Source of the DNA: Paraspadella gotoi
Taxonomy: Eukaryota; Animalia; Chaetognatha
Reading direction: 5' to 3'
Length of the DNA: 64,000 nt
Assembly (NCBI GenBank): GCA_051294375.1
Contig: CM119267.1
Span: 10,601,045-10,665,044 of the forward strand
The translations under genes and the position numbers were made by a program. This document shows positions 869 through 42,471 of this stretch, piece after piece. Numbering within the stretch: position 1 is the stretch's first letter; each line of letters starts with the position of its first letter. Below the pieces are notes generated by a model. The model searched no databases and had not been told where the DNA came from. It saw nothing but the letters and a program-made list of their open reading frames with translations.

Positions 869-4588
<3,720 letters not shown>

Positions 4589-5718
4589 TCTGGCGAAGGA
4601 GTCGCAAAATAGGTTGTCGTTGTTGTTGTTGTTGTAGTTATTGTTTTTGTTTTTTTGTTTTTGAATTCGTTGTTGTAGTTGTTGATGATGATGATGATGA
4701 TGATAGAAAATATAAATATAAGTTGTTTGCAGCAGTTGTCATTGTTCTTCTTTCGTTGCGACTGTTTCTGCTGTTGTTGTTTCTGTTGTTGTCGTTTTTT
4801 TTGTTGCTGTGGTTGTTAATGATGGTGATGGTGTTGTTAATGATGATGTTCTTGCTGTTTTCTTATGGAATATTGAGAGTCGATGCCGTCTTTGTGTTGT
4901 TGAACACGTAAAACTTTAATTTACACTATTGGGCATCAGACAAACATCGTCCTTTTGCTGTAGAAGAAACAGCAGCAACAACAACAACAACAGCAACCTG
5001 AGGAGCGAGGGCCACATCTTCCCTCGGATCCAGTCCAGATTTTTTAGCGACGTGTGCGTCATGATTGGATTTCCACGTCAACGACGCGCGTATAAGAAAT
5101 AACGACAAATATGACGACAATGACGACGACAACGACGTAATCATAGACTTCAATATTTAAAAGAAGGCGACGATGACGACTGAGACGACAGACAATGACG
5201 TCGTCAGAAACGACGTCCAATCGAATGATTTGGCGGGAAATTATCAACGAATCAACGACGACGCATCTTCGTTCTATATGATGGGATTTGGTTGACGACT
5301 CTAAATTCTAAACCGACGAAGACTCGGTACGATCCTTTGGTTCCGCGAAAGAGTTTGACTCGAGACTTTTAAAAGTCGGAGCGACCTTTTTTCTTGGAGG
5401 TCGCTGACCTCTGTCGGGGATCATGGATGAAGAAATAAGTAAACAACTGTTGCCTCAATTTCCTTGTACAAGAGGGCGGGTATTTCCGCTGACCTGTTAA
5501 CTATTTATTGAAGAATGATAATTTTAAAATGAGGGTTGTCAAAGTAAATACGATTATTTCTTTTTTGTTTCCCCTTCGAGGAAGAATCGATTCAACTCAG
5601 AGGAAGGAACTCGAAGTTTCGAGTCTAAGATTAAGAATTAGTTGGCGGTGAGAAAATTAGACGCAATTTACGATGCATCCGATTGTGAGACCAAAAAAAA
5701 AATATTTAAAAAAATTTT

Positions 5719-7380: not shown

Positions 7381-11850
<4,470 letters not shown>

Positions 11851-12806
11851 GGCGGGAGGAGGAAGAGGAAGAGGAGACGAAGACGAGGCTTCGCGCAAAA
11901 TCTTCATTCAACTTCCGGTTTTTCTTTTTCTTTTTTTTTTCTTCTTCTTTTTATTAGAATTCGTTGATTTTTTTATCGGTTTTTGGTGTTTGACTCGCGG
12001 TTCACCGTCGTTTCACAGATGAACTTCCCGTGACCCCGAAGCAACATTCACTGCAGGACAAAAAAATAAAAAAGTTACGGATTTTTTTACATTTTTTTTT
12101 CTCCTAACTAGGAATATGAAAAATGGTAACGAAACAAAATCTTAAGACGTTTTTTCTCCTCTGGCGATTACTCTAAATTTAATAAAGTTTCCGTTTTCTT
12201 CGTTAGAATTTATGATTTTACAAGTGAAGGATTGATTTACATTTATCATTAAATTTTGAATTTTTTTTCTTGTAAAAAACCGCGAAATCTTAAAAATAAA
12301 AACCTAGAATCAGCTCACGAGGGATACAGTCACGCGTTTTAGCCCTTCCCTAATTGTGGTCCGAGGCAAAAATCCTTCCTCGTTATTCAAATGCGTTTCT
12401 TATCATCAAAAAAAAAGAAGTTTGAATTCAAAGCCGAAGATAACGAATCTTCTGAACCTCGCGAATGTAGGAAATCCATTAAAACATTTCCAACTTTTGC
12501 CTCATTTTAATTACGACGAATTTTTTTTCTTAGTAGGTTTAGATTAACTTCGGTTTAATCAAGAGTCAAGGTTAGATTGATTAGATTATCAATCGGGCAT
12601 TTTTGTTTGTCAAACCGATGTCTTTTGAACAGTAGTTTTTTTGAGAGTTGTAGTAGTAAGACTTTTTTGAACGCGAGTGCAATGAAAAAAAAAACGAAAG
12701 AAAACGCAGTAAACGATTCAAACTCCGCGTTTTATATCGCAATAACCGTGTCTAACAAGTATGAATTTTATCATCATCATCACCATCAAAAACGAGCTTT
12801 CAGAGA

Positions 12807-20615: not shown

Positions 20616-23600
20616 TCAAACGTCGACGGAAGCGTTGCATTTGTCTGGACTCATGTAGTAGTAAGCGACGCCATCGTCCGAGACGATGCCATCGTTTCTC
20701 TCTTCGATGGTCGACTTCATGGACTCGAAATCTGCCATCAGTTCCTCGTGGGCGTCCGGAAGTTGATCCTAAACGAATGCGTAAAGTCAGGGGAGGCAAC
20801 GGAGAAAAGAGTGAAACGAAACAATGTTTTTTTTTTCAAAATGGTAATTGCAATTAAGACATTAAGACATTAAGACATTTAAGACCTTAAGACAAATACG
20901 CATTCGAGAAATTTGGCAATTTTTTTCATACATATTTATTTATGAATATTATCCTAGCAGTTGCCATTTTTTCCAACCTGTAGCGAAGTGACGTTCATAA
21001 GAGGTAAGTCCGCCTCGGGGGCAAGAGTGTGCATGACCAAGCATTGGACAACCCTGTTGATGAAGTTGGGCAAGGATCCTTCCACGTCCTCCATCTCCAG
21101 CTCCTCATCCTCGGCCGGCATTGGCAACTGCGGCATGAAAAATAGTTAATTAATTAATTTAATTTTAATTTTAACCTAAGTCTGTAATTAAAGCTTTTTT
21201 ACAAACCTTGAGCGAGAAAGGCTTATTGGGAACATAGCCGTAGCAGTCCAACTGCCCGTCGTTTTGCGCCGAGTGAAAGGCGGACGCTTGGAAGATGATC
21301 GCGGTCAACATCTCCGTCAGCGCCTCTTTGGAATCGATCTTCACCGCTTCCCAATTCTTGCCCGTTTTATCCGGATTTTTCGTTCTGAGCAACGAGTTGG
21401 GGATGAATTTTTTTTTTTTTTTTTTTTAAATTTTGTAATTGGTATTTTGAAATCTAGACACCTGAAGGTGCTCAAGTTTCCTTTGAGCGGATCGGCAATG
21501 TCCGAGACGAACTGTTGGAGGCGCTCGTCTTCAGCGACCCCCTCGTCCTCGTCGTAGGTGGCGTCGACGGCGGCGGCGGCGTACCTGAAGCGTACGATTG
21601 CCAATCGAGTTCAGTCGAATCTTCTCTCGGGGGCAAAGAGAAATAAAAAAGATTTGCCTTTAAACTGCGTTCTTACTTGTTGAGAGATTCCCACAGCAAG
21701 AAGCCATCGTCCCTGTAGTAAAATCCCCGGAATCCGTCGTCGTCCGCGGACGTCGCGAAGCCGCGTTTGGCGATGCTGCGCGGGAAGCAGAAGTCGTCGA
21801 AGTCGACGCGGGAAAATGAGACGTTGGCCAATGAGATGCCGCCCTCGCGGCCTTGAATGTGGCGAGGGGGTTAGGGACGAGAACAAAAGAACGTGACACA
21901 AAAAGAATCCTTTAAATATGATTATGATCCAAATAAACTAAAGATCATTGTTCAAAGTCTCGTTCACCCATTCATCCCGGAGTCAAGATCAAAAGATATC
22001 CATGAAGCGGGCCGACGAATAACGAAATCTCACCGGCGGAAAGATTATCCACGAGAGAGATGGCCTCCCCGATAAGCAGCTGCCTGGCGGCCCAATTCAC
22101 CCCCACCACGTTGTCGAGGTGTGGTTCGAGCATCTTGAGGATTGTTGCGTTCTCGAAGATGTCCTCGTCCAGTTCGAACTTCCAGTTGTGGAAAGCGATG
22201 GCCACGGGTTCCAGCCCCAAGTGAGACATTCCCAAGTGGTTAACGAACTGCATCACCTGATTAACGGCCGTGAAAAAAGGTTGTCAATCTAAGGGGTGAA
22301 GTGACTTAAGTAATGATTTACCATTCACTATGAAGAAAATTAATTTCAAGTTTCTTTAACCTGAGCGTCAGCGCTCTGCACCAACATCTTGGCGTAGAGC
22401 CACTTGACCGACGGGGATTCCGGAGTGAAGATTTGGTTGGGCTTGTCTTTGAACCTTGTCAACTGAATCCCTAAGACGCGGAGGTTGTGTCCGCTTGGGA
22501 AGTCTTCGTCGCAACTTTTTCGATTAGAGAGACATTCATTAAAATTATGAACAAAAAAATGAATTGATGATTTTCTCACCTGTGTAACAAAACTATGGGC
22601 GCATAAAAAATCAACTGTGGATGAGAAGCGCTGCGGTAAAAACCTTCTTTTTCTGGTTTTTTGCCCGGAATCTTCGAGAGAATTTCATAATCTGCGATAA
22701 GCAGACGTTTTTCTTCGATGATATCCGCCACAGAAGTTTCATTTTCGTCCAACGATTTCAGAGCTCTCATTTCCTTCAAGGAAAATGTAATTTTTCTTCA
22801 TAAACTGTTCAAAATATGTATCATTGATATCATTGTTAGCACTCATCACGCGCAGAGGCTGTACCTCCATGCTCCAACTGAAGAACTTACCTTTGGAACC
22901 TCATTCAATTCCTGAACGACTTTCACTTGAAATGGATTGACGCCCTGAAAAAACTGTCGGCAAAACTCTGCGTCGTCTTGCCAAGAAGAGGAGAGCTTCT
23001 CCACGGAGGGGGGCATCGGGACATAGTCGGGGTTGAATACGGCCGTCCACTCGTCCTCCAAGCGGTCGTTATGACCGGAGAGGCCGTAGATGAAGTTCAA
23101 CTGGCGCGAGACCATACGCGCCCAATATTTGGGCTTGAGCATGCGGTCGATGGGCATGATTTTGGCCGAGCCTTGGATCAATTTCATTTTTATGTACTTC
23201 AATTAATTGAGCTCTTTAACTTTCTCATCGAAACGTCAGCAAATCACCTTTTATGACTTACCCGGTATTCCCGTCAAATCCACTCCGTTAAACTTGGTCA
23301 GAGTGTACTCGACCTTGCGGTAAGGCTCTTCCACGAAGTTCATCATAGCCGACTGCAGCTGCTGCTTCAGCGACTCCATGTTGCTGACGTACCTCAGTGC
23401 CTGTTGCTGTTTCTCCATCAAGGCCACCGTGGTGATACTAGTCACGGCAACGCCGTCGTTCAAAGTGAAGTCTGGAACAAACGGAAAAATTCAATTCGTA
23501 TACGGAACTTAACTACAGTAAACGAAAACAGTTAAATTGTAACCCAGATTGAATTCGAGCACAGCTCCTTCCACGTTGCCCTCTTTGGCCAAAACGCGGA

Positions 23601-25292
23601 AATGTCTCTCGATGTTGTCTTCTTTGCATTTTTTCTTGAAGGCGAGTTTGCTCTTCTTCTTGGCGGCCTTCGCATCAACGGGTTCAGGTTCCAGATCTTT
23701 CTTTGCGGGCTTTTCCTGGGTTCCGAAAAAAAGTAAGTACACGTTTAAAATCGACAACTTTTGACAAGTTTTGAGGCGGGTAAGTTAGTGCATCAATCAG
23801 CCCCCGAGATGGAAACCATTTTTCACAAAACCTTTTTCTTCTTCTCCATTTTGGCTTTGATCTCGCCGACGCCGACTTCGCCGCCGAAGACGAAGTCGTC
23901 GTTGTTGAGGCAGTCGCTGTCGAAGAGTTCGATCCTCAGTCGATCGAAGGACTTGGCGACGGAGAATTCCATCTCTTCGGGCCACACCGGATTTGCGTTG
24001 TTGTTAATCACCTTCGTCTCTTTCGATTGGCAGAGGTGACCTGGTTTGTGAAATCGTCGAGAGCCTTTATCCTACTTCCGACTGATGATAGTAGAAATCT
24101 ACTATGAAATTAAATTCAATGTGGGTGGGGGTTCAAAACTTTAGTCTTGAAGTCAACGTTCAGGTAAGAAAAATAATTTTTTATTGTTACTATCAAAATT
24201 ACAATATTACTATATAATGATATAAAAATTTTTTCATCAAAAAAAGTTAAATAAAACATATAACAACTTTCAAAAATTTTTATGTTTTCTTGGTGAAAAT
24301 TAGGAAAAAGTAATAAAATTATCGAAATATGATGATGATTATTAGTAGTTTTTCATATTTTTCACCCACTTATGATCAAAATATTGAAAAAAGAATTATA
24401 CTTTGTGCAGACAACTTTTTGCAAGCTACCTGAATCTGATCTAAAAATAAAAAAATCTTAAAACAATTTTTAGCCATTCCTATTTATAAATAAATATTAA
24501 AAAATTAATATATAGGGTATGGAGTAATATCAAAATGTTTTGCCTATTCAAATTTTTTTTAAAATGTCTAAATTTTCGTTTGAGCAGTTGCTTAATTCAA
24601 ATTTCTTAACCACTTTACTGAGTTAGGCTAACCCTAATGATAGTATGACAGAGACATGAAATGTAACCTTTAGAGTTGACCACGGAAAACTTGACGTATG
24701 GATCGATGGCAGAAAACCTGCTGAGCTTCGGCAGCCTCAAGCCCCTGAGGTCCTTGAGACAGAGAATCGCTACGGTGGGATTGTGTAGCAATTCCAATCC
24801 CTGGACGATTGCCGGGAATGACACCGTCTCCAGACGCTTGCGAAATCCGTTGGCGACCATGCCGCTGCTGCATTCGGCGTGACACTCGATCAGCACGCAG
24901 ACGATGCCTGGCGAAGCCTCCGTCAACGACGCTGTCGTCACGTAGCTCTTGACGCCTGGGTTCGGCTCAATGCTCACCTGACCAGGCCAATCAAGACAAG
25001 TTTACCCTTTTTTGTACAACTTTCTAAATTCTTCTCGTGCTAAACCGACCAATGAATACTTCATGACGTGAGCCTCGTCGTCGCGGGACTCCAACTTCTC
25101 TTTGATGACGTTGCGTTCGAAGGTCAAAACCCTGACGGCGCCAACTTCGTCCTCGGCGTCGTCGACCAGTGAAGCCTCCTTGACGAGCGACCAGTAGGCG
25201 CGAGTGGAGGCGCCGAATCCGCGAAAGGACGACCAGACATCCTCCAACTCGGCGTGGACGAAACCTTGGAAGACGGCGTCGATGGCGGGCAT
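20616..25292 (-). CDS. SRPBCC (polyketide cyclase/START-like) - C2 - lipoxygenase fusion protein, 14 exons
   Basis: Approximate exons: 25292-25050, 24977-24668, 24040-23832, 23715-23544, 23471-23262, 23171-22891, 22773-22580, 22515-22361, 22256-22034, 21851-21679, 21584-21462, 21384-21207, 21127-20978, 20768-20616; all phase-compatible. LOX motifs: WQDDAEFCRQFFQGVNP, WLYAKMLVQSAD, NHLGMSHL, LEPH, FYYRDDG, SAFHSAQN, YGYVPN, YYYMSPDKCNASVDV*. C2: IDPYVKF...TKVINNNANPVWPEEMEF...LRIELFDSD...DDF. SRPBCC: EDVWSSFRGF...EVGAVRVLTF...IKEKLESRDDEAHVMKYSLV. Confidence 0.9.
20852..20894. repeat. (ATTAAGAC)n short tandem repeat in the last LOX intron
   Basis: About 5 imperfect 8-nt units seen directly. 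Confidence 0.85.
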
Positions 25293-25502
25293 CTTCGTCT
25301 ATTTTGTCGAGGATTTTTTTTTTAATCAAAAAAGAATTTAATGTAGGAGAGGATTTGGAAAACGATGGTGGACGAAACTTTAAGACAAAACCGACAAAAC
25401 CGACTGCCGACAATAACCGGTTAAAAATGAAAAAAAAAAACATTGAGACAATTTAGGAGGGGCTGGAAAAGCCGGTTTCGAAAATCTGACAAGACCAAGA
25501 AC

Positions 25503-42042: not shown

Positions 42043-42471
42043 CTATTCGAGCGAAGAGAGCATGAGTAACTGTTTGAGAACTTTGGTTTGACTCGTTTCC
42101 CTGATCTCGCCGGCGAGGAACATCTCGTCGACGACCGAGTAGACCTTGTAAAAATTGAAGACAAGGTCGAGTTCGCAGACGTTATGGAAGTATTCGTTGA
42201 GGACCTCGACGAAGTTGTGAATTGCCTCGAGGTACATGAGGTTGTTGTCGCCCACGTCGACGCAAATGCAAAAGTAGAGTCCGGCGTATCGTCGGTAAAC
42301 GATCTTAAAATTGCGGAACTCCACAAAGTTGGTGTGCTTGGCGTCGCGGACGGTGACGCAGGCGTGGACCTCCTCGATCAACTTCTGTTTTTCGTCGTCG
42401 TCGAAGTTCATGTACCACTTGGCGAGGCGCGTTTTTCCCGCGCGATTTTGGATCAGGATGAAGCGAATCAT
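42043..42471 (-). CDS. AP2S1: AP-2 complex subunit sigma (142 aa, intronless CDS)
   Basis: [37 protein letters not shown]...[12 protein letters not shown]...[13 protein letters not shown]...[18 protein letters not shown] is near-identical to animal sigma2 adaptin. Confidence 0.98.

Follow-up and report, generated by a model that had tools for sequence, protein, structure and literature searches.

A spliced gene of Paraspadella gotoi for a lipoxygenase of the SRPBCC-C2-LOX type

Lipoxygenases (LOX) that carry an SRPBCC domain instead of the usual PLAT domain have been described from red algae, bacteria and lancelets. Such a replacement has been described for the LOXs of Pyropia and Shewanella violacea (PMC4319731, PMC11507377). 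PhLOX of Pyropia haitanensis is composed of two N-terminal barrels (residues 1-284), connecting helices and a LOX domain (424-898), and is multifunctional, combining double oxygenation with hydroperoxide lyase (HPL) as well as allene oxide synthase (AOS) activities, of which AOS and HPL are assigned to the single LOX pocket (PMC11507377). Among animals, amphioxus LOXs possess a C2-like domain together with one to five SRPBCC domains of the PYR/PYL/RCAR type and are related to cyanobacterial and proteobacterial proteins, while homologues are reported from lamprey and hagfish and not from other metazoa (bioRxiv 10.1101/2022.05.18.492404). Here we analyse a gene for a protein with SRPBCC, C2 and LOX domains in a 64,000-nucleotide stretch of Paraspadella gotoi DNA (contig CM119267.1, forward-strand positions 10,601,045 to 10,665,044), hereafter called the window, from the first letter of which all coordinates are counted.

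The gene model was obtained by picking GT donors and AG acceptors in such a way that the frame stays open. Its features are as follows.

20616..25292, minus strand: whole coding span, 14 exons, 2,775 nt, 924 amino acids, with open frame and GT-AG introns
25292 (ATG) and 20616-20618 (stop), minus strand: start and stop codons of the open frame, coordinates exact
25293..25322, minus strand: 30 nt of 5' untranslated bases, not necessarily reaching the true start (position 1 of the transcript contig is 25322)
25292-25050, 24977-24668, 24040-23832, 23715-23544, 23471-23262, minus strand: exons 1-5
23171-22891, 22773-22580, 22514-22361, 22256-22034, 21851-21677, minus strand: exons 6-10
21584-21462, 21384-21207, 21127-20978, 20768-20616, minus strand: exons 11-14
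24777..25292, minus strand: predicted SRPBCC domain (PYL / Polyketide_cyc2-like), residues 1-148, exons 1-2, from Pfam, PDB matches, structural model and family alignment
23458..24776, minus strand: C2 domain, residues ~149-316, exons 2-5, with Asp 173, 225, 227 and 232, from Pfam, PDB matches and the strand order in a relative's model
23617..23852, minus strand: Lys-rich insertion inside C2, residues 248-287, split by intron 3, from alignment with relatives; the junction is spliced
22996..23457, minus strand: helical connector with family signature, residues ~317-440, aligning with the family and keeping 6/9 near-invariant positions
20619..22995, minus strand: LOX catalytic domain, residues ~441-924, from family alignment
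22221..22238, minus strand: iron ligands H598 and H603, His in 29/29 relatives at both columns
21261..21275, minus strand: iron ligands H802 and N806, His and Asn in 29/29 relatives
20619-20621, minus strand: fifth iron ligand, C-terminal V924 (relatives' C-terminus Ile in 25/29, Val in 1/29)
22086..22088, minus strand: A648 at the Ala/Gly stereo-determinant position, Ala in 29/29 relatives

All parts of the protein, from SRPBCC through C2 and the Lys-rich stretch to LOX, are encoded on one spliced transcript. This is seen in a 2,977-nt contig (depth 66.8) of sequencing run X1 which, within the compared stretch 21450-25380, skips all ten modelled introns from exon 1 to exon 11; its pieces are collinear from 25322 to 21462 and the skipped introns all read CT..AC on the plus strand. 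The joined junctions comprise exons 1-2 for SRPBCC, exons 2-3, 3-4 and 4-5 for C2, and the passage from exon 5 into the LOX exons. Altogether the model has 13 introns of 65-627 nt, AT-rich and all GT-AG; introns 11-13 lie outside the compared stretch and are based upon the open frame, the match to the family profile and the sum of lengths (30 + 2775 + 172 = 2977), the contig remainder of 653 nt fitting 481 coding plus 172 untranslated nucleotides, with an AATAAA 13 nt past that point. The RNA status of run X1, a single run of a single study, is a guess, and the contig is assembled from short, not long, reads; the fraction of sampled words of the gene region present in this run is 0.52, near the coding share. 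Of the three sequencing runs examined, X1 contains the gene and X2 and X3 do not. A preliminary description of the locus, made from its letters alone, had proposed a single spliced frame joining all domains, and the contig bears this out. As a side observation, many other X1 contigs pile up over part of intron 2 (24090-24640), with summed depth to ~2,400 and 90-95% likeness, which suggests a short dispersed repeat; inverted repeats in this region are weak only.

As judged from alignments, the protein belongs to the SRPBCC-C2-LOX family of bacteria and lancelets. BLAST aligns it end to end with family members over ~930 columns, the 22 best rows being 26-30% identical to it (E to 7e-118). Against a profile built from 26 relatives it reaches 560 bits in full length, over profile positions 11-845. 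Its SRPBCC, C2, connector and LOX parts, which cover 924/924 residues, each match this same family. The relatives were collected in two steps. A search of the full library with exon 9 gave 35 matches, 27 of which were scanned with Pfam and eight left outside the scan; seven of the 27, being repeat proteins that lack LOX, were set aside, while among the 20 LOXs nine had SRPBCC, two had SRPBCC plus C2 and none had PLAT. A profile of 16 exon-9 LOX matches then found 29 proteins, including members from Shewanella, Pendulispora, Myxococcota and Branchiostoma, and 24 of these 29 have all three Pfam families, a proportion that is not a frequency among LOXs, the query having favoured the SRPBCC-C2-LOX build. 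A genome scan returned 36 loci, mostly of cyanobacteria and myxobacteria. The bacterial proteins, from Shewanella sp. HL-SH2 (P0049), Pendulispora (P0042/P0043), cyanobacteria such as Coleofasciculus and Tolypothrix, and Myxococcota, have the same three domains and connector, collinear and at 26-30% identity with the Paraspadella protein. These bacterial relatives have the same iron ligands and Ala determinant; unlike the Paraspadella protein, however, they are single open reading frames (ORFs) of ~836-944 amino acids without the Lys-rich loop, have fewer C2 Asp (Asp is not among the four commonest residues at position 227) and conserve the pocket residues Asn, Phe, Arg and Phe that are replaced here. 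The model of the Shewanella member comprises a helix-grip domain, an eight-stranded sandwich, helices and LOX; its predicted local distance difference test score (pLDDT) is 88.5 but its predicted template modelling score (pTM) only 0.67, which is consistent with loosely coupled domains.

It follows that the architecture is not new, contrary to what the preliminary description had supposed. The claim fails because the build is already common and described, the very outcome by which that description was ready to be refuted: it occurs in 24/29 relatives, its amphioxus version is in print, and SRPBCC-LOXs of Pyropia and Shewanella have been assayed, deletion variants included. The same description had envisaged horizontal transfer of the SRPBCC part by itself. 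This idea is unsupported because the whole three-domain protein, and not its SRPBCC portion only, is related to the bacterial family. Nor do we accept that SRPBCC was transferred by itself to a PLAT-LOX of an animal, since each part matches the same family.

Several observations on the breadth of the family may be added. It also takes in a fungal (Endogone) and a red-algal (Hildenbrandia) LOX (among P0014, P0018, P0031, P0021 and P0034), one further subgroup has a C2 domain too divergent for Pfam, and in many bacterial members SRPBCC is present and C2 absent. In metagenomes, nine short fragments of genes lose similarity at about the same borders as exon 9, one of them is interrupted at the place of intron 8, and Met occurs at the position of M593 in six of the nine, with the qualification that gene callers favour Met starts; together these features suggest that other eukaryotes have a subfamily with introns. 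When metagenomes were scanned twice for close relatives containing introns, 0/91 and 0/113 pattern matches were confirmed. Word-index searches with single exons gave 0/118 candidates for exon 2 and 0/10 for exon 6, which is weak evidence given that profile searches found the family, and in the ESM Atlas exon 2 yielded C2-type leads below 0.9 only and the amphioxus protein no usable match.

The N-terminal domain is modelled as a helix-grip SRPBCC fold, in agreement with its first assignment to exons 1-2. Exon 1 matches half a Polyketide_cyc2 domain in Pfam (E 8.5e-4), its 20 bits falling short of the cut-off of 27.4, and 18 of its 19 PDB rows at E<=1 are PYR/PYL receptors by name or family, the remaining row being a Bet v 1-like chain that is unrelated in title only. 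The model of exon 1, which represents 81 of the 148 domain residues, has a pLDDT of 90. Among helix-grip chains it lies closest to onion lachrymatory factor synthase (LFS; Z 8.8, root-mean-square deviation 1.5, 78 residues aligned), followed by a protein of unknown function (Z 8.6) and PYL9 (Z 8.1), the top three being tied; its structural matches further include fern hydroxynitrile lyase, norcoclaurine synthase and polyketide cyclases, and Foldseek gave a probability of 1.0 but an E above 0.001. The full SRPBCC domain of the Shewanella relative is modelled with seven strands and three helices. PYR/PYL/RCAR receptors and onion LFS (PDB 3oqu, 5gte) have in common with the Paraspadella domain the helix-grip fold and an Arg-Glu pair on strands 3-4, but they are stand-alone proteins, unlike the three-domain protein studied here, in which the PYL gate loop is also four residues shorter than in PYL receptors. 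R54, E65 and Y79 are kept and invariant in 29/29 relatives, whereas the family residues W113, Q131 and Y135 are missing; Y93 is present here and in none of the 29.

C2, rather than PLAT, occupies the next position. Exon 3 matches C2 (PF00168) with E 5.6e-11 and 43 bits, above the Pfam cut-off of 22. PDB matches at E<=0.01 number 38, and every one of those listed is a C2-domain protein, dysferlin, NEDD4 and PKC among them; PLAT has no match in any of the 14 exon frames at E<=0.1 (Pfam). Both the absence of PLAT and the beginning of C2 inside exon 2 had been noticed from the sequence alone. Five loop Asp are typical for Ca2+-dependent membrane binding by C2 domains, and four of these five positions have Asp here (173, 225, 227 and 232). 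The Lys-rich stretch, 17 Lys in the 40 residues 248-287, had been taken for a linker between C2 and LOX, a role that we reject: it sits between strands 6 and 7 of C2, a segment of 58 residues here versus 14-19 in 29/29 relatives, after which C2 resumes with strands 7 and 8 (relatives' alignment, Shewanella model). The stretch is thus a 40-residue insertion within C2, and the true link to LOX is the helical connector, residues 317-440. No hydrophobic segment is present in the whole protein, the best 19-residue window reaching 1.37.

The LOX catalytic domain is complete, as originally described, and keeps all five iron ligands (H598, H603, H802, N806, V924). It retains 75 of 104 near-invariant family positions at 32-36% identity to the family, and three of the 14 exon frames give a Lipoxygenase match in Pfam. 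Ala at the Ala/Gly stereo-determinant position is the mark of S-type LOXs. Four pocket residues of the family are replaced here: N by A590, F by L663, R by K819 and F by V855, where the relatives have N in 26/29 (A590), F in 29/29 (L663) and F in 28/29 (V855). Mapped by their distance from the iron ligands, not by alignment with PhLOX itself, A590, L663 and V855 correspond to N575, F642 and F826 of PhLOX, and K819 to its carboxylate-binding R787. Hence, within the pocket set N575, F642, Q777 and F826, one position in four is kept, namely the Gln, Q809, which is the only determinant retained among those mapped, whereas the 29 relatives are nearly invariant at these positions.

PhLOX (AFQ59981), PhLOX2 and SvLOX (BAJ02412) of S. 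violacea resemble the Paraspadella protein, as far as their published descriptions go, in having N-terminal SRPBCC not PLAT, connecting helices and LOX in ~900 residues; the two barrels in residues 1-284 of PhLOX match SRPBCC plus C2 in length, the second barrel presumably corresponding to C2, while the residues responsible for PhLOX side activities are replaced here. Canonical animal PLAT-LOXs (5-, 12- and 15-LOX; coral 8R- and 11R-LOX) have the same catalytic fold, iron site and an N-terminal membrane beta-sandwich, which is however PLAT rather than C2, and show 17-24% identity to the model of the Shewanella family member (template modelling score ~0.68 of target). The coral catalase-like AOS-LOX (PDB 3dy5) differs by its haem catalase-like domain, for which no exon frame gave a Pfam match. 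The PDB matches listed contain no solved SRPBCC-C2-LOX structure, those listed being ordinary LOXs.

In evolutionary terms, the nearest animal counterpart is amphioxus XP_078585172.1 (P0062), a single protein with SRPBCC, C2 and LOX in the same order and 28% identity over the whole length, which differs by extra N-terminal SRPBCC-like repeats, the absence of the Lys-rich insertion and the retention of N, F and R at three pocket positions lost here. In full-length trees the Paraspadella protein is sister to this amphioxus LOX with support 97/98 (21 rows), and in a full-length mixture-model tree of 17 rows the grouping has an SH-aLRT of 95; with connector plus LOX it has 73/95. The tree of the N-terminal half leaves the grouping unresolved (approximately unbiased (AU) test, p 0.46), and LOX-only trees of 77 and 34 rows do not recover it, yet do not reject it (AU p 0.50). 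Amphioxus also has the most identical rare replacements at conserved columns (five, the next row having four), and its joint deviations are 18 against 10 expected, with a nominal p of 0.0009 among 29 rows tested. These trees are unrooted, place the Paraspadella protein on a very long branch, include one amphioxus sequence and no PLAT-LOX outgroup, and those of 34, 21 and 17 rows were chosen for one or two rows per subclade; they constitute moderate evidence for grouping with amphioxus LOX in full-length trees. The LOX domain itself falls inside a 31-row clade against three other bacterial LOXs with SH-aLRT 99, in a tree without animal PLAT-LOX and plant LOX. From such relationships one may tentatively consider, as somewhat short of an even chance, a single early animal origin before the protostome-deuterostome split, the gene being kept in lancelets, jawless fish and the invertebrate group of Paraspadella. 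The literature search found no SRPBCC-C2-LOX reported from a non-chordate animal, although the supplements of the amphioxus preprint and of PMC11507377, which lie outside this search, may bear on the point.

How might such a protein work? We consider it reasonably probable that it is a soluble non-haem iron dioxygenase that uses the LOX pocket alone to convert polyunsaturated fatty acid to an S-hydroperoxide, with SRPBCC as a non-catalytic modulator. C2 in place of PLAT would dock the enzyme on membranes, probably with Ca2+, while its Lys-rich loop could add binding to anionic lipids or act as a signal for nuclear import. The shape of the LOX pocket would be maintained by the helices of the connector, and PhLOX loses activity when deprived of its connecting helices (PMC11507377). 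The SRPBCC cavity may bind a lipid or other small ligand and thereby tune rate or product, forming no second active site. Modulation instead of catalysis is suggested by the PhLOX deletions and by PYL receptors, which are non-catalytic with the same residues. Removal of the first barrel of PhLOX increased volatile products and kept part of the peroxidation, whereas removal of both barrels left part of the peroxidation but no volatiles and no HPL activity (PMC11507377). A modular-binder role would suit SRPBCC also because many relatives lack this domain or have one to five copies of it. Given the replacement of the four pocket residues, the product is predicted to be simpler than in PhLOX, without double oxygenation and allene-oxide side activities, and to reflect another position of attack and hence another positional specificity. 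In PhLOX, N575L lowered AOS activity, F826L abolished the dihydroperoxide and the double mutant F642V-F826L made mainly 13-HpOTE and no volatiles (PMC11507377).

Some of the evidence pulls the other way. The protein may have lower or altered activity, since 29 of 104 near-invariant LOX positions are changed and its branch is the longest in all trees; R54, E65 and Y79, together with Y93, resemble the catalytic polar zone of onion LFS, the top structural match; the fifth usual Asp position of C2 has Ser (S167); the mapping of PhLOX residues rests on spacing and the C2 identity of its second barrel is deduced; the loss of HPL activity upon deletion of the whole N-terminus indicates that in PhLOX this part shapes the products; and the literature search, with the same supplements outside it, turned up no assay of any animal SRPBCC-C2-LOX. 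The protein might instead be a multifunctional LOX like PhLOX or SvLOX, producing dihydroperoxides, cleavage aldehydes or ketols in one LOX pocket under N-terminal control. Family and layout are the same, Q809 is kept, SvLOX, whose F826 position is occupied by Leu, shows HPL activity, and in PhLOX this activity went up with single replacements (PMC11507377). We nevertheless regard this as unlikely, for the Asn and each of the two Phe have given way to other residues here, the F642V-F826L mutant of PhLOX is without volatiles, and PhLOX2 and CcLOX of the same clade are described as having no HPL activity (PMC11507377). A further alternative is that the LOX is degenerate or has weak activity and is retained for lipid binding or as a scaffold. 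The branch length would fit this, as would the residues replaced at conserved family positions (H593, H628, R819 and several Phe) and the C-terminal Val for Ile. It is made very improbable by the retention of the five iron ligands, A648, Q809 and 75/104 near-invariant LOX positions in an intact spliced transcript, and by the His-to-Met change common to 6/9 short fragments of other eukaryotes, which suggests a maintained subfamily.

A second active site in SRPBCC, in which Arg54-Glu65 with Tyr79 and Tyr93 would isomerise, dehydrate or cyclise the LOX hydroperoxide or a short-lived product in the manner of LFS, follows the analogy with coral AOS-LOX drawn in the preliminary description. R54, E65 and Y79 are indeed invariant in 29/29 relatives, onion LFS heads the matches to exon 1 (Z 8.8, tied with the unknown-function protein and PYL9), the lyase, synthase and cyclase enzymes named above are there too, and R71-E88 with Y114 are catalytic in LFS (bioRxiv 142687), an enzyme that acts on a sulfenic acid. 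But PYL receptors, which are not enzymes, also keep the Arg-Glu pair (bioRxiv 142687), Y93 occurs in 0/29 relatives, and the variable number of SRPBCC domains, from none to five, fits a modular binder; moreover, the AOS and HPL activities of PhLOX are placed in its LOX pocket and volatiles rose upon removal of the first barrel (PMC11507377), so that the coral analogy is weakly supported and the second site seems decidedly unlikely. Quite improbable, too, is the combined proposal of a second animal LOX lineage, unrelated to PLAT-LOX and of early single origin, in which SRPBCC serves as a haem-free second site (Arg-Glu-Tyr-Tyr, LFS-like) making a new oxylipin. Finally, the fusion could be an artefact of two adjacent genes, mis-assembly or bacterial contamination, considering that its transcript support comes from a single short-read contig, belonging to a single run and study with guessed RNA status. 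This is barely credible and already largely refuted: ten canonical splice joints lie within one contig, exon 2 is common to SRPBCC and C2, the bacterial relatives are collinear single ORFs, and the GC content at third codon positions (0.73) and CpG ratio (1.2) of the LOX gene are inside the range of its animal neighbour genes (0.53-0.77 and 1.03-1.67).

The reading as an S-type dioxygenase with modulating SRPBCC defines no new oxylipin system, since the three-domain build is already described. The enzyme type being known, this copy likely extends the SRPBCC-C2-LOX family, by its sequence, to another animal group, that of P. gotoi. With regard to the preprint's view of the amphioxus LOXs as a novelty, an expressed, intron-rich copy in another invertebrate group would imply either an earlier origin or repeated uptake, and such animals would gain an oxylipin route without PLAT-LOX. 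As a natural multiple variant at positions mutated in PhLOX, with a fuller set of C2 Asp, the protein would offer a test case for the roles of SRPBCC and C2.

The neighbouring genes are of animal type: SARM1, AP2 sigma, SLX4, MLH3, an EH-domain protein, SRPRB, GANP and a DOMON protein. All of them except the DOMON gene sit close together on the minus strand between 34335 and 63142 and have very long exons, the EH-domain gene being synergin-like; this layout might stem from extensive loss of introns or from transcription of the operon-like kind. The GANP frame has 1,643 amino acids and AP2 sigma is intronless, in contrast to the LOX gene with its 13 introns. AP2 sigma (42046-42471) is identical to that of Priapulus caudatus in 140/142 residues, differs at three sites from that of Branchiostoma and at 5-7 from those of the 10 nematodes listed, with one divergent model excluded, and the identical protein is found on 13 contigs of the sequence collection. 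By itself this protein points to a bilaterian and speaks against a nematode. A lancelet is argued against by the lack of introns in AP2 sigma, the great length of the exons, CpG ratios above 1 and the identity of only 28% to the Branchiostoma LOX, lancelets being rich in introns and having methylated DNA. At 7384-11907 a DOMON-domain gene (E 8.8e-13) is followed by exons of membrane-spanning character, possibly of the DOMON-cytochrome b561 type. At 2617-4738 there are two weak Pfam matches below the curated cut-off, one at 3401-3619 for axonemal dynein light chain and the other at 4349-4738 for CCDC32. Across the window the CpG observed/expected ratio is 1.33, up to 1.67 in coding DNA, with no sign of methylation-driven CpG loss.

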